64,000 nucleotides of DNA from a virus. The stretch lies in the IMG/VR virus record IMGVR_UViG_3300032236_000718, positions 100,429 through 164,428 of that record; one strand, written 5' to 3'. The notes under the pieces are model-generated. The model did no database searches. It saw nothing but the letters and a program-made list of their open reading frames with translations, and was not told the DNA's origin. The position numbers and the translations under genes are program-made. Shown piece after piece: positions 755 through 64,000 of the stretch; the first letter of the stretch is position 1; each line of letters opens with the position of its first letter.

Positions 755-3700
755 ATGGCTAGTAAGATTATTATCAGAAGGACTACGGTATCAGGAAGAA
801 CTCCTAATACAGTAGATCCTACCAACACACAGTTTATTAATACTGGAGAGTTGGCCCTCAACCTGACAGACAAGAAGCTATTCTCGTCTAACGGCACTTT
901 GTCGTTTGAGATCGGGTCTAATCTTACCAGCCTTGTAGTATCAAATACTATATTCCTAGGAAACAGTACAGTCAACACGACTGTAAATTCAAGCTCCATC
1001 TACATAGCTAACTCTACAGCTAATACCTTAATCAAGCCAGGTAATGCTGCACTATTTGGTTCGGTTATTCAGGTTGGTAACTCTACAGTAAACAGTGTCA
1101 TAACAAGTTCTGCTATTGCAGTCAATGGTGACTATGTAGCTACAAATAACTATGTACAGAACACATTTATTACAAATGTTACAGCCTATAGTGTATTTGC
1201 TCTGGCCGCAAACGTTACTAACTCTGTCGACGCAGTTATATCTAACACACTTAATGTAGCTAATAGTCTTTTTGTTAATACTACAGCTATAAGCATATCT
1301 AATAATATAGCTTTATACGCTAATGGCGAGTTTGGTGGATCAGGCACATTCTTATCATCAAATGGATCAGGTGTTTATTGGGCAGCAGCTGTAACACCAT
1401 CAGATCTATCAGTAAACTCAATAAGCATAACTGGTGGAAGATTAGCAGTAGGTAACTCACTAGTTAATGTAGAAATATCTAATAACTCTATTAAGATAGG
1501 TAACTCCACATCAAACATAGTTATTAACTCAACTATGATTATAGCTAATGGTTCTGCTGGTGGTAATGGAAACTATCTTACATCTAATGGAACATCCATA
1601 TATTGGACTTCATCTGTTACTCCAACAAATCTAACAGTAGACAATGTAGAAGTTAGTAATGGCCATGTATCTGTTGGAAACTCAACAGTAAACACAATAG
1701 TATCTAATACCGGTCTTATTGTAGGAAATAGTACAGTAAATTCTACTGTTAATTCAACATCATTTTCCGGTACTTCAAATAATGCATTGTATCTCGGTGG
1801 AAATAGTGTATCTACTATTCTTACGTATGCAAATAATAAAGCAGCAAATGCATATTCAAACGCAACAAGCTATGCTGATTATGCTGCTGAAAATGCCTAT
1901 TCAAATGCTGTCTCATATACTGATATTGTTGTGTCATCTAATGCTACAACAACTTACTCTAATTCAGTAGCATATACAGATATAGCTGTGGCAAATGCTT
2001 ACAGTAATGCTGTGACTTATACTAATAATAAGGCAGGAAATGCATATTCCAACGCGGTAACATATGCAGGAAATGCTGCTGCAAATGCCTACTCTAATGC
2101 AGTAAGCTATGCAGACCTAGCTGCAACAAATGCATATTCCAACGCGGTAAGTTATGCTAGTAATGTTGCTGGAAATGCCTATAGCAACTCAGTCACATAT
2201 ACAAATAATAGAGCTGCTAATGCATACTCTAATGCAGTCACATATGCCAGTTTAGCAGCTGCAAATGCATATACAAATGCAGTATCATATGCTGACTCAG
2301 CAGCAGCGACTGCTTACTCTAATGCAGTCACATATTCATCCAGCTATGCCGACTCTCACTCTGCAACTGCATACGCTAATGCTGTTTATAATGCTGGACT
2401 GTATGCAGCAAATGCATACAGTAATGCAATTGCATATGCAGGTTTAGCAGCGGCTAATGCTTACTCTAATGCTATATCTTATGCAGGAAGTGCAGCTACT
2501 AGTAATGCTGCTGCTGCATATGCTAATGCAGTCACTTATACAAATACTTACTTTGCACATCTTTCTGGGGCAACATTTACTGGTAATGTCGTAATATCAA
2601 ATACAGGACTTATAGCTAACGGCTCTATTGGCACCAACAAGCAGGTTCTACTAAGCAATGGATCATCCCCATACTGGGCAGCACTAGCTCCTGTCAGACA
2701 GAACTATACTGCTAACGGAACAGGAACTACCTATACAGTCTCTGGTGGATATACACCATATAATCTAGATGTGTATGTGAATGGTGTCAAGTTACTTAAT
2801 GGTATTGATGTAGACGTGTCTAACGGATCTATATTTACAACGACTTCAACATATCCTAGTGGAACTACAATCGACGTGTTAGGTCAGGTCCCGTACACGG
2901 GGGCACCCGGTTCTTATGTGTCTAAAGCTGGCGATACTATGTCAGGTACACTCACTGTTGGAACTACACAGATTGGTAGTAGTTTTATAAATGTGAACTC
3001 AGTCGCTTCAGGCTTAATACCTTCAACTAACCTAGCGTTTAGTTTGGGAAATACAACAAACCGCTGGAATGACTTATATGTGGGTTCTAACTCTATTATA
3101 TTCACAGACTCTTCTGGTGGTCCTGACCAATACTTAAAACTAGCTAACCAGGTTTTTAGTATAATTCAGGCTGGTACATCTAACTCGTATAATGCAAATG
3201 CCGGCTTTAATGCTGGTGGAATACTATTACAGAACTTTACTATAACACTATCAAACACTGCACACGACTTCCAGATAGGTGTCGATGCTGACACTGCAAA
3301 TGTTGTTATACATAGACCATTATTAATAGGTAACTCGACTGTCAATACTTCTATTAATGGTATATCTGTCTCTACAAATACTGCTAAAGTAAATTATATC
3401 TCTGCAAATGGAACTACGGGTGTTGTAGGTCAAGTCCTTTTATCTGGTGATGGTTCTTCTAATGTCTATTGGGGTGGAGTTAAGTCGAACACGGTTATTA
3501 TAGCAAACACGACCTATACTGCTACGGCTAATGATAAGTGGATGGGATTTACAGCTAACGTGTCGACATTGACTCTGCCTAATACACTTAATGGTGCTAC
3601 AGATGGTAAAGAATATCAAGTAGCCTGTATGGGCGGAGGCAGCAAATCAAACGTGATTATACAAGTCGAAACAGGAAGTACTTTATATGCCAACGGTGCG

Positions 3701-3772
3701 CAGTCTGTTCCTAATATTACTCTAGGAAGATTCATTTACATCAGTGGTGTCTGGTATGGTACAATAGGCTAA
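755..3772 (+). CDS. tail fibre protein with AYSNA repeat stalk
   Basis: N-terminal IIIRRTTVSGRTP...GELALNLTDKKLF fibre attachment motif; GNSTVN repeats; 11-aa AYSNA repeats; DVYVNGVKL module. Confidence 0.8.
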   Translation: MASKIIIRRTTVSGRTPNTVDPTNTQFINTGELALNLTDKKLFSSNGTLSFEIGSNLTSLVVSNTIFLGNSTVNTTVNSSSIYIANSTANTLIKPGNAALFGSVIQVGNSTVNSVITSSAIAVNGDYVATNNYVQNTFITNVTAYSVFALAANVTNSVDAVISNTLNVANSLFVNTTAISISNNIALYANGEFGGSGTFLSSNGSGVYWAAAVTPSDLSVNSISITGGRLAVGNSLVNVEISNNSIKIGNSTSNIVINSTMIIANGSAGGNGNYLTSNGTSIYWTSSVTPTNLTVDNVEVSNGHVSVGNSTVNTIVSNTGLIVGNSTVNSTVNSTSFSGTSNNALYLGGNSVSTILTYANNKAANAYSNATSYADYAAENAYSNAVSYTDIVVSSNATTTYSNSVAYTDIAVANAYSNAVTYTNNKAGNAYSNAVTYAGNAAANAYSNAVSYADLAATNAYSNAVSYASNVAGNAYSNSVTYTNNRAANAYSNAVTYASLAAANAYTNAVSYADSAAATAYSNAVTYSSSYADSHSATAYANAVYNAGLYAANAYSNAIAYAGLAAANAYSNAISYAGSAATSNAAAAYANAVTYTNTYFAHLSGATFTGNVVISNTGLIANGSIGTNKQVLLSNGSSPYWAALAPVRQNYTANGTGTTYTVSGGYTPYNLDVYVNGVKLLNGIDVDVSNGSIFTTTSTYPSGTTIDVLGQVPYTGAPGSYVSKAGDTMSGTLTVGTTQIGSSFINVNSVASGLIPSTNLAFSLGNTTNRWNDLYVGSNSIIFTDSSGGPDQYLKLANQVFSIIQAGTSNSYNANAGFNAGGILLQNFTITLSNTAHDFQIGVDADTANVVIHRPLLIGNSTVNTSINGISVSTNTAKVNYISANGTTGVVGQVLLSGDGSSNVYWGGVKSNTVIIANTTYTATANDKWMGFTANVSTLTLPNTLNGATDGKEYQVACMGGGSKSNVIIQVETGSTLYANGAQSVPNITLGRFIYISGVWYGTIG
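1820..2545 (+). repeat. coding tandem repeat, ~33 bp / 11 aa (AANAYSNAVxY)
   Basis: About 20 degenerate copies in the translation; boundaries approximate. Confidence 0.85.
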
Positions 3773-3806
3773 TAAATATGACAATAATAACGAGAGAGTT
3801 TAATTA

Positions 3807-6800
3807 ATGAGTCAGAACCAAAATTTAGGTACGTTTGCTGACTTCCTTTCGGTCAATACCAGCCCGAACACCATCTCGGTATCGGCACCGCTGACTATCG
3901 CAAACAATCTGACTGTTACTGGAACACTGACTCTCTCGGGTAACACAGTCATATCTGGTGCTAATAACCTTGTACTTCAATCTTCAGTATTGAGTCTTCA
4001 TACTCAAGCTAATCTCGCGCCTCTGACTTCAGATGATGGTCAGAATATTGGTATCGCATTCCACTACTATGACGGTTCAGATAGACAAGCTTTCCTTGCG
4101 AGAGTCGACACTACAGGCTATCTTGCATATTACAACACATCTACTGACGTATCACTAGGACCAGTATCTGGTACTGACCTTGGTACTATTCAGGCTGCAA
4201 GTTTTGTAGCCGGTAATTCAACGGTCTACACAATAACTAATGCAACAATTTTCAGCGGTACTGCTAATAATGCTAGCTACTTGAGCGGAAATACAGTATC
4301 AGATCTTCACACCTATTCTGATAATAAAGCTGCAAACGCATATAGTAATGCCGTAACATATGCTTCTCTTGCTGCTGCTAATGCCTACTCTAATGCTATA
4401 GCTTATGCAGGCACTGCTGCAACAAGTAATGCTGCACAGGCATACTCAAATGCTGTTGCTTATACAGACTTAGCAGCCGCTAATGCTTATAGTAATGCAG
4501 TAAGTTATGCCGCAAACGTTGCCGCTAATGCTTATAGTAATGCAGTAAGTTATGCTGGAAATGCAGCTGCGAATGCTTATAGTAATGCAGTAAGCTATGC
4601 TGGAAACGCGGCTGCAAATGCTTATAGTAATGCTATTGCTTATTCTGGTAATGCTGCTTTAGCATATGCTAATGCTGTTACATATGTAAATAATAAAGCT
4701 GCTAATGCTTATGCTAACGCGATAGCTTATTCTGGAAATGCTGCACAAGCATACTCAAATGCAACTACTTATGCAGATAATAAAGCTGCAAATGCTTATA
4801 GTAATGCTGTCACATATGCTGGTAATAAGGCGGATAATGCATATAGTAATGCAGTCACATACTCAAGTCTAGCTGCTGCTAATGCATATTCTAATGCAAT
4901 AAGTTATGCAGCTTTAGTTGCAGCAAATGCCTACTCAAATGCAATAAGTTATGCTGGAACTGCCGCAACTAGTAATGCCGCACAAGCATATTCTAATGCT
5001 GTTACGTATGCAGATAATAAAGCTGCAAATGCCTATAGTAATGCTGTTACATATGCTGGTTTGGCTGCCTCAAATGCATATACTAATGCTGTTTCCTATA
5101 CAGATAATAAAGCAGCTAATGCATATTCAAATGCTATAGCTTATTCAGGAAACGCAGTACAAGCATATACTAACGCAATATCTTATGCAGCAAATGCGTA
5201 TTCAAATGCTACAAGTTATGCAGACTTAGCCGCTGCAAATGCATATTCAAATGCTACAAGTTATGCAGCAAATGCTGCAGCAAATGCGTATTCAAATGCT
5301 ACAAGTTATGCATCTTTAGCTGCTTCAAATGCATATGCTAATGCAACTTCATATGCTAGTTTAGCCGCTGCAAATGCCTATTCAAATGCAATAGCTTATT
5401 CTGGTAATGCTGCTCAAGCATATGCTAATGCAATAGCTTATACCAACACAAATATAGCTCTTACTACTGGTACCACATTTACCGGTAACGTTATATTTAA
5501 TGCTAATATAGTTGCAAATACTCTAGTAGCTAATGGCTCGCTTGGCAATGTTGGTCAAGTATTAACTGCAAATAGCACTGGTGGGTTGTATTGGGCATCA
5601 GATCAATTTGTTGGGAATGTTGTAGCAAATATAGTAACATCTAATACTCTTACATCAAATCATGTTGTAGTTAATAATGATATATCGATTGTTAACGGAT
5701 CTTATAGCAATACAGCAATGTATAGTGATAGGATTTTTATAGGAAATGGTGATATTCAAACTACTGTTAATAGTACAACTTTTTGGGCTACTTTCAGTAA
5801 TACATCATCTCATGATGTTTATATCTCGTCTATTACATCATCAGGTGGTTATATAAATTCAACTGCTATTGGAATAAATCTTGAGCCTTTAATCTCATTA
5901 GGTATGAGCTGGAGTGATCGTAATGGTGGAGGTGGTGCACCAAGGTTCTTCCCACAAGGGTCGCCATATGCATTATCACAGAACTTATTTAATGTTAATG
6001 CCTCATTTATCCAATTAGGTAATAGCACGAACTATGTAAACTTTACAGTTGGAAATAATGCGCCAACTATCCAGTTTATTAGTCCTAGTGCAACAGGCGG
6101 TGGAATCACCATCAATCAATCTGGAATAAGTACTGGAAATAGTGTCTCTGGCACTGCTGCTAACACACAGGGTTTCTATATAAATGGAACTGAAGTTTAT
6201 GCAAGAAAGTCAGGCACTACATTTACAGGAAATGTTGGTTTCAACGCTAATATAGTTGCAACCAGACTTGTGGCAAATGGTGCTCTTGGCGGTAATAACC
6301 AAGTGTTAACATCAAACTCTACTGGTGGTCTTTTCTGGTCAGCTGGAGTTACAATCAATAATTTAGCAGCCGACTATATTAATATCGCGGTAGGTAATTT
6401 AACTGTAGGTAATACTACTGTTAATACGAGTGTATCAAACAATGGTGTACTTGTACAAAATGCTACTTCATCTTCTACATTAAATCTCTCTGGCCTGAAT
6501 ATAGGAAATGCTACTGTTAACGCTGTAATGAATAGTAGCACACTTTCAATAGCATCTGCTACTATTAATAATACCACGATAACTGGCAATCTAACTGTTA
6601 ATAATACACTTACGGTAACAGGTAATCTGGTACTTGCTGGATCAACCACATATATTAACTCCACTGTTATTACTACAAAAGATCTTAATATTATATTTGC
6701 AAACGGTGCAGCAAATAGTTTCTTAACAGATGGTGCTGGTATAGTAGCTGGAATATATGCTAATTTAGTATTTGATGATCCTACTACTTCTTGGCAGTCA

Positions 6801-8138: not shown

Positions 8139-9763
8139 TGGCAGTTATTCCTGTTTCTAAATTATACTCAAATGGTACATTAGCTATAGCTAGTAATTTT
8201 GACGAGACTATATCTATCACACCATCAACTACAAAGACATATTCAAACGGAACTTTAGTATCAAGTTTCTTTGATGAGACTATGTCTATATCTCCATCAG
8301 TCTCGAAGCTATACTCTAATGGTGCTATAAGTGTTTCAGGTAAATTTGATGAGGTAACTAATAATCCTACCGTATTTGGAAGTTTAAATACTTTTTATAA
8401 TGATACTAATACTTGTATAATTTTACCAAATAGTAATAATTATAATTTTAGTACTGGTGATTTTACCTTTGAGACTTGGGTTTATCTTCATAATCCAATA
8501 TCAGCTAGTAGCCCCTATGGTGGTGGTATAGCTTCATTATCTTATCAATATGGTGCTTCAGGTCGTACATCATGGATCGCATCGCTTACTTATAATTCAG
8601 GTGATGCAAATTCTTCTTTCTTTACATTTGTTACAACGACAGATGGTAATTCAAATACATTAAATTCTAATGCATATTATTCTACACATACTACTCCAAT
8701 AAAAAGATCAAATTGGACGCATCTTGCTGCATCTAGATCCGGTTCAAATCTTTATCTATCTGTCGATGGAAATGTACAGTCTTTTACAATTAGTTCTGCT
8801 GCGTTATATAACAATAGTACTGACCCTTTTATTATTGGATCATATTCATATACATCTAGAAATTCTTCTCTTTTTATGTTTTTAGGTAAATTATCAAACT
8901 TAAAAATAGTTAAAGGAGCTGCACTATATACAAGTAATTTTACACCACAGCTTGTTCCTTCAACTGCAGACTCTAATACTGTGCTTTTACTAAATACATT
9001 ATATGTCGATCCGTTTAAAGACTCAAGCCAATATAATGTTACGTATACTAGTATTGGAAATACAACACCAGAATCCTTTACACCTTTTAATCCACCAGGA
9101 TATAATAGCATATATTGTAATTCAACTTCTGGTGCATTTAGTGTTATAACAAATGCTACACCATCTTTTCAATTAAATAATAGTGATTTTACTATTGAAA
9201 CTTATATATATCCAACATCTCTATCAAAAACAATTCTTGATACAAGAACTTCAAATACATCAATAAATGGAATAGTCTTACAGACAAGAGCTGGTGCAAA
9301 TATACAACTTACGGCAAATGGAACTAATTATTTTGGTTCAGGAGCAAATGTTATAACTAATACATGGAATCATGTGGCTGTAACAAGATCAAGTAATGTG
9401 TTTAGTGTATGGGTAAATGGTGTTAAAGCAATAACACAAAATCTAGGGGTTACTTTATCTGATCAGGCAAATTGGTTAATTGGTGCTGGGCAACCGGGTA
9501 CTTCTAATGGATATATTGGTGCTTATTTTAGTAATTTTAGGGTAGTTACAGGCCAGGCATTATATTCTAATACTTTTACACCTTCAACAAAACCACTATT
9601 ACCTATAGCTAATACAATCTTATTAACAGCACAGTCCAATAAGTATATAGATAATTCAACCAGTAATATAAATGTTATTGCAGTAAGCAATTCAATATAC
9701 AGCGATTTAGTCTCTAATAATCAACCCTTCAAGTTTGATTTTTCTAACACCGGTCTAAGCTGA
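8138..9763 (+). CDS. LamG/concanavalin A-like domain protein (2 domains), putative adhesin
   Basis: DFTFETWVY...WTHLAASR and DFTIETYIYP...WNHVAVTR; three N-terminal SNG...FDE repeats; TAATG coupling to upstream fibre. Confidence 0.8.
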   Translation: MAVIPVSKLYSNGTLAIASNFDETISITPSTTKTYSNGTLVSSFFDETMSISPSVSKLYSNGAISVSGKFDEVTNNPTVFGSLNTFYNDTNTCIILPNSNNYNFSTGDFTFETWVYLHNPISASSPYGGGIASLSYQYGASGRTSWIASLTYNSGDANSSFFTFVTTTDGNSNTLNSNAYYSTHTTPIKRSNWTHLAASRSGSNLYLSVDGNVQSFTISSAALYNNSTDPFIIGSYSYTSRNSSLFMFLGKLSNLKIVKGAALYTSNFTPQLVPSTADSNTVLLLNTLYVDPFKDSSQYNVTYTSIGNTTPESFTPFNPPGYNSIYCNSTSGAFSVITNATPSFQLNNSDFTIETYIYPTSLSKTILDTRTSNTSINGIVLQTRAGANIQLTANGTNYFGSGANVITNTWNHVAVTRSSNVFSVWVNGVKAITQNLGVTLSDQANWLIGAGQPGTSNGYIGAYFSNFRVVTGQALYSNTFTPSTKPLLPIANTILLTAQSNKYIDNSTSNINVIAVSNSIYSDLVSNNQPFKFDFSNTGLS

Positions 9764-56143: not shown

Positions 56144-56172
56144 TGTACATAATGTCAGAACCATGCTATATT
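56144..56172 (+). promoter_or_regulatory. pre-replicative promoter TGTACA-N17-TATATT
   Basis: Motif family member, intergenic. Confidence 0.75.
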
Positions 56173-56197
56173 AAGAATATAAGCAATGGAGATGATC

Positions 56198-56374
56198 ATG
56201 GACCAAGTTGATATCCAAGCCCAGGACAAGTCTGGCGTATGGCGTACGTATCACACCACCGAGAATAACTCTCAGAAGGTCCTATCAGAGATGCAGTCTC
56301 TGAAGCGTAATTTACCTGAATTTCGTGTGCGTGCCGTGGATAAAAATGGCCGTATTGTTGATATTTTAGGTTGA
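56198..56374 (+). CDS. hypothetical protein
   Basis: 58 aa from ATG 56198 with GGAG SD. Confidence 0.65.
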   Translation: MDQVDIQAQDKSGVWRTYHTTENNSQKVLSEMQSLKRNLPEFRVRAVDKNGRIVDILG

Positions 56375-56379
56375 AGTTG

Positions 56380-56387
56380 TATAAATA
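56380..56387 (+). promoter_or_regulatory. late promoter TATAAATA
   Basis: Exact consensus; predicted +1 near the ATG at 56393. Confidence 0.7.
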
Positions 56388-56392
56388 AAACT

Positions 56393-56500
56393 ATGAAACA
56401 CTATACTCAGGAACTACACATGGTACACCAACCGAAACCAATTACAGTCTGCATGCTCGGTAATACCGAATACGCACGCTCATGGGGTAGTACCGCCTAG
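56393..56500 (+). CDS. putative attenuator leader peptide (35 aa)
   Basis: MKHYTQELHMVHQPKPITVCMLGNTEYARSWGSTA*; stop codon lies inside the antiterminator strand. Confidence 0.6.
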   Translation: MKHYTQELHMVHQPKPITVCMLGNTEYARSWGSTA

Positions 56501-56527
56501 TCACATCTCACATTGTTGGGTTTGACT

Positions 56528-56561
56528 AGGGCAGGAAAAAAGATTCCTGCCCTTATTTTTT
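56528..56561 (+). terminator. conditional intrinsic terminator (attenuator 1)
   Basis: AGGGCAGGAA/TTCCTGCCCT stem plus T-run; competing helix 56496-56503/56523-56530. Confidence 0.85.
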
Positions 56562-56564
56562 ATG

Positions 56565-56593
56565 TGTACATAACCTTGATAGTGGTTTATATT
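56565..56593 (+). promoter_or_regulatory. pre-replicative promoter TGTACA-N17-TATATT
   Basis: Predicted +1 near 56600, the 5' end of the large ncRNA. Confidence 0.75.
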
Positions 56594-56599
56594 AAGAAT

Positions 56600-57353
56600 T
56601 CAGGCAGCTCCTCCCTGAGTATAAGAGGAGCCCCTGGCTGGTACTGGCGAAAAACGCAGGTGGTTTCCAGCAGGGCAGAAGAGAGTTATCTCTTCATGGA
56701 TACTACACAGGGTACCGTGCATGGACGCATGTACTAATGGATGATAGGGCCATCTTGCCATCCTAAGACAACCTGATCAATGGCTGAGGAAGGGAAGCAC
56801 CCGACTCCGAAATTCGATTTTATGTAGTATCTTTGAAGAGATAATTGTTGTTTCGCTTATACAGGAGACTAATAGTGCGGAGTAATTAACCGAAACTGTA
56901 AACAAATAGGCTGGTGGAAGGGTGATGTATGAGCACCGCTCGGTCGGGAAGCGGCTGATCCTGAGGTTGGGTTTGATTCCCATGGTTTGTGTATTCTGTA
57001 TAAGCGTAACAACAATTTTGGACGGTATTGGCCAGTACGCTGATATCTGTATTCCCTGGCAGGAGTACGAACGAGGGATGCCAGTCCCTCTAGTAGCCAA
57101 ATAATTAATTCAAGAGACGTGTGGTCTACCACCCCATCGAACCTGTAGACATCTAGCCCTGCACTTATACGCCTGATGATTGCCTGTGATGGCATGAAAC
57201 ACCTCGGTGTCGCGTGGAGAAGCCCAAGCAGGGGAATAACTGGCTTCCTAGGATGGGGAACTTATTGTAGCAGTATGGCACTGCTTGTGAAGCACCTACG
57301 GAGATGGTAGGAATGCAGTCGGGCTTCATGCCGGTCTAACAAAACAAATGCCA
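56600..57353 (+). ncRNA. large, highly structured multi-pseudoknot ncRNA (~755 nt)
   Basis: No credible ORF; many long-range helices (e.g. 56686-56707/56823-56844, 56843-56866/56994-57017, 56600-56605/57171-57176). Confidence 0.75.
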
Positions 57354-57362
57354 AACTATTTT

Positions 57363-57436
57363 GCTGCCTTAGCTCAATGGTAGAGTACTGGATTGTGGCT
57401 CCGGAGACAGTGGTTCGATACCACTAGGCAGTACCA
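57363..57436 (+). tRNA. tRNA-His(GUG), no G-1, A73
   Basis: Cloverleaf, GTG anticodon, encoded CCA. Confidence 0.93.
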
Positions 57437-57439
57437 AAG

Positions 57440-57596
57440 AATTGCAGGTGTGGAAGCCTGTAATTACCTTCCCAGTTGTCCGTATAGCTTGGGGAAGGAT
57501 ATAGTCCGAGGGCGACTAAAGCTCCTCTTTATACGGACGTGACCCTTTGTCCTAAACCTGTCGGCACGTAGATCGACGCTGGAAGGAGTAACCAGC
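57440..57596 (+). ncRNA. structured pseudoknotted ncRNA candidate
   Basis: CCTTCCC/GGGAAGG stem whose loop GTCCGTATA pairs with TATACGGAC (57530-57538). Confidence 0.5.
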
Positions 57597-57608
57597 AATG
57601 AATTTTTT

Positions 57609-57696
57609 GGGGTGGCTGCTCAGATGGCGGATGGGCACCGGACTGTAAATCCGGCACATAGATACGCAGTTGGTTCGAATCCAACCCGCCCCACCA
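57609..57696 (+). tRNA. tRNA-Tyr(GUA)
   Basis: CCGGA-CTGTAAA-TCCGG arm, long variable region, CCA. Confidence 0.9.
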
Positions 57697-57705
57697 AAAT
57701 AACTG

Positions 57706-57734
57706 TGTACATATATCGATGTGCATGCTATATT
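57706..57734 (+). promoter_or_regulatory. pre-replicative promoter TGTACA-N17-TATATT
   Basis: Motif family member. Confidence 0.75.
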
Positions 57735-57775
57735 ATAAAAGTAAGGCATGGTGCCTTTATTATGGAGAAAGTGAA

Positions 57776-57970
57776 ATGTCTAAAGCAGAACGCGTACTTA
57801 ATGCCCTCTTGAATGGTCAGCAACTCTCAACAAAGCAGATCTCGACCCGTTATAAGGCAGCTAACCCAGCAGACGTGATCTATAAGATCCGTAACTGGGG
57901 TTACGAGGTCTCGTTGAATAAACAAAAGACTTCTTCTGGTACTTCATTCAAGTACTCAATCGCAGTCTAA
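57776..57970 (+). CDS. small winged-helix/HTH-like protein
   Basis: RVLNALLNGQQLSTKQI..RY...NP..VIYKIRNWGY; GGAG SD. Confidence 0.65.
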   Translation: MSKAERVLNALLNGQQLSTKQISTRYKAANPADVIYKIRNWGYEVSLNKQKTSSGTSFKYSIAV

Positions 57971-57994
57971 TACGTTAAGCTCCATCTCGGATGT

Positions 57995-58023
57995 AAAGAG
58001 GGGCTTAACGGCCCCTCTTTTTT
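57995..58023 (+). terminator. conditional intrinsic terminator (attenuator 2)
   Basis: AAAGAGGGGC-TTAACG-GCCCCTCTTT plus TTT; competing 11 bp helix 57973-57983/58000-58010. Confidence 0.85.
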
Positions 58024-60171: not shown

Positions 60172-60245
60172 ATCAGTGAAGTGTTACGGTAGCACGACGG
60201 TCTCCAAAACCGCAAGCTAGGGTTCGACTCCCTACACTGGTGCCA
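60172..60245 (+). tRNA. tRNA-Trp(CCA)
   Basis: CTCCAAA loop, G73, CCA. Confidence 0.9.
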
Positions 60246-60246
60246 T

Positions 60247-60270
60247 CTCCTATAAATACGTTTATAGGAG
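60247..60270 (+). promoter_or_regulatory. late promoter embedded in an SD-sequestering hairpin
   Basis: CTCCTATAAA-TACG-TTTATAGGAG contains TATAAATA (60251-60258) and the AGGAG SD of ORF 60277. Confidence 0.8.
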
Positions 60271-60276
60271 TACATC

Positions 60277-60936
60277 ATGGCTAAGATCGGGGTATACAAG
60301 CATCATCCTTACTGTTCCGAAAACAGTGCTTCAGGCATCAGAGATGCTTTGGACCACTTTCATATTTGCCACTACTTCGATGAGACAGACATAACTCTGT
60401 CATTTCTCAAACAATTTGATCTAGTAGTTTTTCCTGGTGGTCTCGGGGATGCAGGCAAGTTTAATGAGATTTTTCATTGGAGAAATGCTGCTATCGTTAA
60501 CGAGTATGTAGAGTCCGGAGGAAAGTATCTTGGAATATGCATGGGTGCTTACTGGGCTGGTTCTAATTATTTTGATATTATCAACGGCATAGATACCGTA
60601 CAATATATCAAGAGACCAAATGCTGACATAACAAGAAGTTACGGCACAGTCGCAGAAGTCGAATGGCTTGGCGATAAAAAAGAGATGTACTTTTATGATG
60701 GTTGTGCTATAATAGGACCTGGAAATTACGACACAATAGCAAAGTATAAGAACGATGATCCTATGGCTGTTATACAGGGAAATGTCGGGCTTATAGGTTG
60801 TCATCCGGAGTCTGCCAAGTACTGGTATGATACATGGTCATATATGCCATCTAAGTGGCACAACAGAGAGCACTACTTCTTATTAAGAGATTTTGTCAGA
60901 AGAATGTTAGGATACTATGATGGAAGTAACATTTGA
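60277..60936 (+). CDS. class I glutamine-amidotransferase-like (BPL-N type) protein
   Basis: FPGG; GGKYLGICMGAY; GCHPE (Cys-His-Glu triad). Confidence 0.8.
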   Translation: MAKIGVYKHHPYCSENSASGIRDALDHFHICHYFDETDITLSFLKQFDLVVFPGGLGDAGKFNEIFHWRNAAIVNEYVESGGKYLGICMGAYWAGSNYFDIINGIDTVQYIKRPNADITRSYGTVAEVEWLGDKKEMYFYDGCAIIGPGNYDTIAKYKNDDPMAVIQGNVGLIGCHPESAKYWYDTWSYMPSKWHNREHYFLLRDFVRRMLGYYDGSNI

Positions 60937-61126
60937 GGATTTATTACTCTGGGAAGGCATTAGCCTTATTGATAGTATGGTTGCAGTTGGATTTGCAAAG
61001 AGTAAGTCTGAGGCACGTAGAATGATAGAGCAGGGTTCTATTAAAATAGACGATATAAAAGTAACTAACCTAAAGGCTGTACTACTGTTCAGCCCAGATA
61101 AGACTAAGCACTGTGTAGTGCATTAA
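60917..61126 (+). CDS. stand-alone S4 RNA-binding domain (TyrRS C-terminal-like)
   Basis: GFAKSKSEARRMIEQGSIKIDDIKV. Confidence 0.78.
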   Translation: MMEVTFEDLLLWEGISLIDSMVAVGFAKSKSEARRMIEQGSIKIDDIKVTNLKAVLLFSPDKTKHCVVH

Positions 61127-61127
61127 C

Positions 61128-61204
61128 GGATTCGTAGCTCAACTGAACAGAGCGCCGCGCTACGAACGCGGAGGTTAGAGGTTTGAGTCCTCTCGGGTCC
61201 TCCA
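61128..61204 (+). tRNA. tRNA-Arg(ACG)
   Basis: CCGCG-CTACGAA-CGCGG arm, CCA. Confidence 0.92.
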
Positions 61205-63966: not shown

Positions 63967-63992
63967 AAAAAAGGGGAGCCGAAGCTCCCCTT
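63967..63992. terminator. intrinsic terminator, best T-tract on the - strand (possibly bidirectional)
   Basis: A-run then GGGGAGC-CGAA-GCTCCCC then TT. Confidence 0.75.
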
Positions 63993-64000
63993 AATATAAG

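Follow-up and report, generated by a model that had tools for sequence, protein, structure and literature searches.

It has long been asked why phages carry large arrays of tRNA genes (PMC10264068). The analysed stretch of DNA (the window, 64,000 nucleotides) is the last 64 kb of a contig of 164,428 bases from an uncultured T4-like phage, with the sliding clamp, clamp loader and RegA just upstream; the genome encodes 28 tRNAs covering 19 amino acids, including tRNA-Asp and without tRNA-Phe. A short ORF followed by an intrinsic terminator stands ahead of the array. With a probability of roughly 0.7, we consider this ORF to be the leader of a transcription attenuator coupled to the ribosome, one that samples almost every amino acid, reports the general speed of decoding and governs mainly the late read-through into the array.

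About 37 bases are repeated at both contig ends (window 63971-64000 and G000 1-37), so that the genome is probably circularly complete, with the tRNA array going on at G000 2371-6388, where six more tRNAs are found. A two-piece tmRNA, scoring above the Rfam alpha_tmRNA cut-off, was observed outside the window at G000:C1:58249-58599, with the motif TATAAATA near its 5' end, and represents a further investment in translation rescue. As this tmRNA is of the alphaproteobacterial type, the host is probably an alphaproteobacterium.

The features of the leader region and first array genes given below for the window (56144-58020) lie on the plus strand. The T4-type late promoter motif TATAAATA (56380-56387) is followed by an ORF of 35 codons, running from a putative leaderless ATG at 56393 to the TAG at 56498-56500, and every literal statement of the preliminary description on these elements was correct on rechecking. 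Its remark that there is no Shine-Dalgarno (SD) sequence holds for ATG 56393 and fails for a second in-frame ATG at 56420, which has AGGA (56409-56412; whole element 56409-56422) 7 nt upstream and would give a 26-codon leader; the SD duplex energy is -4.3 kcal/mol for this start versus -1.3 kcal/mol for the first ATG. The second start is kept where the first is frameshifted or lost: a 1-nt deletion in the L331 group, seen in five assemblies, breaks the frame of the first ATG and leaves the second intact, and the first ATG is lost in L407/L430. Translation probably begins mainly at ATG 56420. Leaderless initiation is probably possible as well, since the full-length frame of L349 has only the +1 ATG; the late promoter lies 4-5 nt ahead of an in-frame ATG in six sequence groups. 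The leader ORF has a usable start, either SD-led or at +1, and a conserved frame, and the within-group pN/pS values of 0.22-0.61 (0.22 in the window's own group), together with a third-position bias, indicate coding (purifying) selection.

Upstream of the leader, a conserved hypothetical gene of 58-62 aa without a Pfam family (56186-56374) is the usual neighbour and served as a marker, and a sigma70-like (early/middle) promoter lies at 56144-56172; as no terminator separates this promoter from the leader, it can also feed it. The exact peptide sequence of the window forms a singleton cluster, and exact 14-mer scans of viral contigs returned only chance matches and the known close copies.

The leader peptide had been described as using 18 amino acids (no Asp or Phe) and 27 distinct codons, and both counts are correct on rechecking. 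The "pan-codon" character drawn from them was not borne out, because 27 codons are at chance level (uniform random mean 26.8; shuffle P 0.30). The presence of 18 amino acids in 35 codons is by itself borderline (P 0.04-0.06); counted from the SD-led ATG 56420, the same 18 are found in 26 codons (P 0.004-0.013). All of them are held by a putative sensing core of 20 codons, His12 to Trp31 (56426-56485), in which only Pro and Thr are repeated, and the feature that marks amino-acid-specific attenuators, namely a series or clustering of codons that specify one to three amino acids, is absent.

In the related peptides, 18-20 amino acids were counted in 24 of 24 cases, whereas gene windows average 13-16 and shuffles 14-17.5. 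Every group (100%) contains Cys, versus 17% of gene windows; the figures are 90% versus 29% for Trp and 80% versus 37% for His; Arg and Pro are likewise far commoner in leaders, and the usual gaps are Phe (absent in about half of the groups) and Asp (absent in a third). Among short ORFs, at least 17 amino acids were found in 12 of 13 with both a late promoter and a terminator, versus 544 of 7276 with neither. The order of residues differs between groups and Cys ranges from -8 to -30 relative to the stop, meaning that composition, not order, is kept. Since a G..P..W pattern is common to the groups, which are probably homologous, the product of their P values (4e-12) overstates their independence. 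Synonymous codon spread across the family is 287, versus 269 from phage usage and 282 under uniform choice (P 0.18), and the window's own leader shows no excess. These data indicate that the trait under selection is amino-acid coverage, not codon number. Residues appearing for the first time are missing from the end of the ORF: in ten representatives, the last three codons hold 0 versus 7.0 expected, and the last four hold 1 versus 9.6, although base pairing places a constraint of its own on these final codons and is a partial cause of the three-codon boundary.

The leader codons were also compared with the anticodons of the phage tRNAs, and 15 of 26 were matched (13.7 expected), with no excess over chance. 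The Phe codon and tRNA-Phe are both absent in the window's genome and in L482 (10 kb seen), and both are present in L479 and L359; L483 has the Phe codon but lacks tRNA-Phe in the 10 kb seen, and the matching between leader and tRNAs also fails for Asp and His. In the sister phage L479, tRNA-Phe lies at 8335-8410 (compared with window 60245-61128), together with the Phe codon in its leader.

The relatives were collected by starting from a conserved ncRNA motif with which the array begins, amino-acid diversity not being a criterion. This census gave 28 distinct leader loci with 24 peptides in about 10 sequence groups, one locus (L338) being identical to the window. All of these loci have an ORF of 26-46 codons whose stop codon pairs into the terminator base, ahead of the ncRNA/tRNA array. 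The nucleotide sequences of L324 and L319, at the same locus, are very different, yet the plan is the same: a late promoter, an ATG at about +1, a second ATG with an SD, 35 codons, and a stop codon within the 5' arm of a hairpin, the 3' arm of which takes up the terminator base. A blind scan for the leader plan without a diversity filter recovered seven groups encoding 18-19 amino acids; of its two low-diversity calls, one was the wrong frame of a true member. Where a terminator stands ahead of the ncRNA motif, the ORF in front of it is usually the leader or a helix-turn-helix (HTH) gene; many loci have no terminator. In cultured phages, a DNA search found no related element, and the upstream neighbour gene was absent; the HTH homologues of DLP_6 and Melnitz are not beside tRNA arrays, and the tRNA array of DLP_6 has no leader in front. 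As a separate observation, L019 carries at 5941-6110 a 38-codon ORF with all 20 amino acids, unlike the other leaders in sequence, whose stop lies 29 nt ahead of a terminator with a predicted antiterminator, 490 nt ahead of 15 tRNAs.

The pairing between the stop codon and the terminator base was counted with the stop codon as anchor. The stop codon and its partner change together (TAG:CTA, TGA:TCA, TAA:TTA), all 72 of the 72 cells at positions -2 to +3 are paired, and the register is the same in 11 of 12, allowing for the longer terminator stem of L324; compensation between columns is significant in one of four testable groups (P 0.013). The preliminary description had suggested looking upstream of tRNA arrays in relatives for a conserved short ORF with its stop codon inside a covarying antiterminator, and had staked its idea on the ORF and alternative helix being conserved; both are seen at the 28 loci, where this covarying stop pairing goes together with the coding selection noted above. 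Antiterminator strength, expressed as an energy z-score against tail-shuffled controls, averages -3.3, with 20 of 28 loci below -2; for ordinary terminator-bearing gene ends, the corresponding values are -0.5 and 1 of 28. A competing antiterminator that a ribosome at the stop would cover is found at the family level, the overlap in the window being small. The attenuator reading is thus supported by the relatives.

In the window, the antiterminator H2 (56493-56535; core 56496-56503/56523-56530, -13.5 kcal/mol; -15.0 kcal/mol when extended) competes with an intrinsic terminator that lies between the leader and the regulated genes (56528-56563 with its U-tract; 10 bp, 56528-56537/56544-56553, -17.3 kcal/mol). 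The 8-bp helix and the 10-bp terminator with its T-run were as described before, and the proposed bulged extension appears as pairs of 56493-56495 with 56532, 56534 and 56535 when the RNA is folded up to the terminator 5' arm. H2 joins the stop-codon U (56498) to the first nucleotide of the terminator (56528) and, by holding 56528-56530, leaves a terminator of 7 bp (-9.1 kcal/mol). The perfect overlap is limited to these 3 nt plus the three bulged pairs, and the equilibrium minimum-free-energy (MFE) fold of the window RNA shows both helices side by side; its antiterminator z is about -1 (P 0.16), and its group is among the weakest of the family.

A footprint model, in which a ribosome is masked on the RNA and the pairing probability of the terminator base is computed, gave P=1.0 for the outermost terminator G-C pair with the A site no more than three codons away from the stop. 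With the A site farther away, the probability of the same pair is 0.5-0.8 in the window and falls to 0.0-0.2 in several relatives. As this computed switch point matches the boundary beyond which no new residues appear, the sampled residues sit where a stall would matter; the amino-acid content is very broad and confined to the region where a stall leaves the antiterminator free. The earlier claim that stalling at almost any codon allows read-through is consistent with the model for the 20-codon core and not for the last three codons, where termination is predicted. In the ribosome-free RNA of the window, 56418-56425 competes for the H2 extension and the probability of the terminator base remains 0.42. 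The terminator wins at equilibrium in some members (L402 and L324), which suggests that the switch rests on folding kinetics. A small hairpin, H1, at the Gly-Asn codons (56457-56469) is a candidate RNA polymerase pause hairpin, and a small hairpin lies 20-66 nt ahead of the stop in 12 of 13 representatives; the stability of the coding region against synonymous recoding is not significant (mean z -0.6).

Based on these elements, the attenuator may be pictured as follows. RNA polymerase would start at the late promoter or read in from upstream, and a ribosome would use the SD to initiate at ATG 56420 or, on late transcripts, begin leaderless at 56393, as conservation of the two starts suggests. 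During fast decoding, the ribosome within three codons of the stop is computed to cover the 5' strand of H2, so that the 10-bp terminator can form and transcription would end near 56560. A ribosome lagging at any point of the 20-codon core would allow H2 to form first and hold the base of the terminator 5' arm, and polymerase would read into the ncRNA block and tRNA-His/Tyr and past a second switch into the remaining array. From the sequence we infer translation in vivo, polymerase pausing, the direction of regulation and the natural signal, for which tRNA cleavage, a shortage of amino acids and other damage to ribosomes are all compatible with the sequence.

What the leader would control is limited by a downstream promoter and the second switch (57970-58020). 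The sigma70-like promoter TGTACA-17-TATATT (56565-56593), which the preliminary description had named as a bypass, lies directly after the terminator and is matched in 26 of 28 members, and is hence a family trait; it could reduce the switch to a minor role. T4-type phages shut off host promoters. The position of this promoter suggests that the switch matters most likely late in infection, when host-type promoters would be silent and tRNAs would be topped up if translation falters; the simplest reading is that the array would be expressed early unconditionally and late only on demand. The read-through into the ncRNA/tRNA array proposed earlier fits the first gated block (56600-57696), which contains structured ncRNA cassettes without an Rfam match, tRNA-His (57363-57436) and tRNA-Tyr (57609-57696), as well as the HTH gene after it; it does not extend beyond, unless the terminator at 57995-58020 is also passed. 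This gene encodes a 64-aa winged-HTH protein (PF14090) and is followed by a second antiterminator/terminator pair (57776-58020 in total). The two terminators, at 56528 and 57998, are the only ones found in about 15 kb of array, and no promoter was recognisable for the six tRNAs that follow the second.

In 30 of 38 relatives, the end of the HTH gene forms a stop-coupled antiterminator/terminator (z below -2), its last codons pairing with the terminator arm; in the window, the competing strand begins just past the stop and is weak (z -1.3). This arrangement was seen at window 57776-58020 and in L013, L034, L042, L046, L363, L450, L451 and others, and an ordinary HTH gene may serve as a sensor ORF. 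On balance, we slightly favour the wider proposal that a trp-type attenuator has become, in phages, a gauge of the whole translation supply, with a leader selected to include almost every amino acid once, which would open the tRNA array when any tRNA or amino acid becomes limiting, for example under a host anticodon-nuclease defence, and which would form a two-step, demand-driven cascade with the HTH switch.

The same stop-coupled geometry in front of ordinary HTH genes of 64-93 aa raises the alternative of a generic translation-coupled terminator, which senses only the timely arrival of a ribosome at the stop (upon initiation failure, ribosome shortage, repression or uncoupling), the amino-acid richness being inherited or incidental. 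The apparent homology of the leader peptide groups and the chance-level match to phage anticodons would also agree with it. We regard this alternative as unlikely, because all 24 peptides keep their broad content despite differing order and sequence, with rare residues strongly over-represented, and because the ribosome-free RNA of groups 9 and 10 favours the terminator (P 0.65-0.97), so that an untranslated leader would not open. Lower still is the probability of a nascent-peptide arrest sensor, in which G..P..W stalls the ribosome with a ligand, or of a functional small protein acting in trans like peTrpL. Against these speak the variable spacing of G..P..W, the coincidence of G..P with the strands of a small hairpin, the absence of Trp in L324 and the lack of a Pfam family; as to arrest motifs of the TnaC and ErmCL type, the peptides show the loose G..P..W pattern, which H1 partly explains. 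The points in their favour are a pN/pS below 1, a Trp 4-10 codons ahead of the stop in 9 of 10 groups, and the existence of trans-acting leader peptides in alphaproteobacteria (PMC7298713).

A stand-alone late small RNA of about 170 nt was our first working idea and was what the window alone suggested; it was dropped because divergent relatives keep the frame and the switch. Together with a constitutively leaky terminator, in which H2 and the 7-bp terminator coexist, it is now judged marginally more improbable than the peptide-based explanations: the whole leader RNA folds well (z -3.4) with both helices side by side, the codon usage of the ORF is unlike that of phage genes (bottom 2.5%) and the downstream block owns a promoter, but the frame, the SD or +1 ATG, the stop register and the amino-acid content are kept while the nucleotides diverge, and there is no Rfam family match. 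Least probable of all, in our estimate, is that the switch works with the adjoining ncRNA cassettes, or occlusion of the adjacent promoter, as its main target instead of tRNA supply. The cassettes lie 90-290 nt past the terminator in all members, partly because they were used as the search anchor, and the second terminator follows two tRNAs later in the window; yet tRNA genes are found 400-1400 nt downstream wherever the contig is long enough, and a broad amino-acid sampling fits the broad tRNA set of this phage.

Several known systems are comparable with the ribosome-coupled attenuator proposed here. The hisL, thrL, multivalent ilv and pheST leaders are leader-peptide transcription attenuators that serve amino-acid operons. 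Compared with the trp/his/thr/ilv type, the phage leader has no single-codon run and contains 18-20 amino acids mostly once each, lies behind a T4-type late promoter, would gate tRNA and ncRNA genes instead of enzymes, and uses the stop codon itself, always in one register, for pairing with the terminator base; the genes behind it are ncRNAs and tRNAs, not genes for making or charging a sensed amino acid. T-box riboswitches also control an antiterminator through tRNA status, in their case by binding one uncharged tRNA directly and without translation, whereas the phage leader would be translation-based, and the Rfam scan of the leader locus found no match to a T-box or other cis-element. The likeness to trpL of E. 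coli and S. meliloti (PMC6614838) lies in the short translated ORF, the alternative antiterminator and terminator helices, the termination once the ribosome reaches the stop with read-through on lag, and, in some members of the phage family, a ribosome-free fold that favours termination. The leader is a real, conserved element, predicted to work like trpL-type attenuators but without being amino-acid-specific.

The antibiotic-responsive transcription attenuators ermK, mef/mel, bmrCD, vmlR and lmo0919 (reviewed in PMC5418344) are similar in that a stall in a short leader ORF favours the antiterminator and read-through, although most need drug-specific stalling and control resistance genes, in contrast to the broad composition and the tRNA array of the phage leader. 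The closest functional analogue is the Anabaena trn operon, a supernumerary tRNA array switched on when translation is impaired, which is induced by translational stress through the repressor TrcR (PMC8421152, PMC10272220); there, a DNA-binding repressor acts at initiation, and here a cis-acting ORF/RNA switch would act at termination. The countering of host tRNA depletion by phage tRNAs (PMC10264068) is the likely purpose of the gated tRNA genes, and a keyword search of that source showed no passage on the control of phage tRNA expression. In the literature searched, which covered few subscription papers, no published leader-peptide or attenuation control of phage tRNA genes and no all-amino-acid leader were found.

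If the proposed mechanism is true, a sensor that opens the array only on decoding failure would provide direct genetic evidence for a role of these tRNAs as a conditional rescue and not as a constant codon supplement, and the role of phage tRNAs becomes testable with a 180-nt reporter. Attenuation would then extend from the sensing of one amino acid to overall translation capacity, and the element might be used as a portable biosensor of tRNA damage or starvation.

Several further observations were made in the array. A conserved long stem, starting with TCTCTTCATGGATAC, closes structured inserts that differ between phages, are interchangeable and are sometimes in tandem (window 56686-56844 and 56843-57017; L002, L004, L006, L007, L319, L340). 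Stem and inserts at 56686-57017 have no Rfam match; the stem looks like a processing stalk for swappable small RNAs, and the 'giant RNA' may be a string of such cassettes. In blastn, the part of the ncRNA block at 57150-57242 showed weak similarity to regions without annotation in Mycobacterium abscessus prophages (73%) and in Klebsiella/Escherichia phages (83% over 53 nt, E 7e-4). Matches above the cut-off to Rfam Atu_At1, a Rhizobiales sRNA, adjoin tRNA genes in L359 (5279-5385) and L387 (9875-9982) and are possibly tRNA-adjacent artefacts. ARAGORN predicted tRNAs with TTA and CTA anticodons in the array of a relative (L480 3586-3660 and 5483-5557), which are possible stop suppressors or decayed tRNAs. 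Finally, stand-alone genes for S4 / TyrRS C-terminal-like domains occur within the tRNA array (window 60917-61126; L482 and L483), with two copies in L482.
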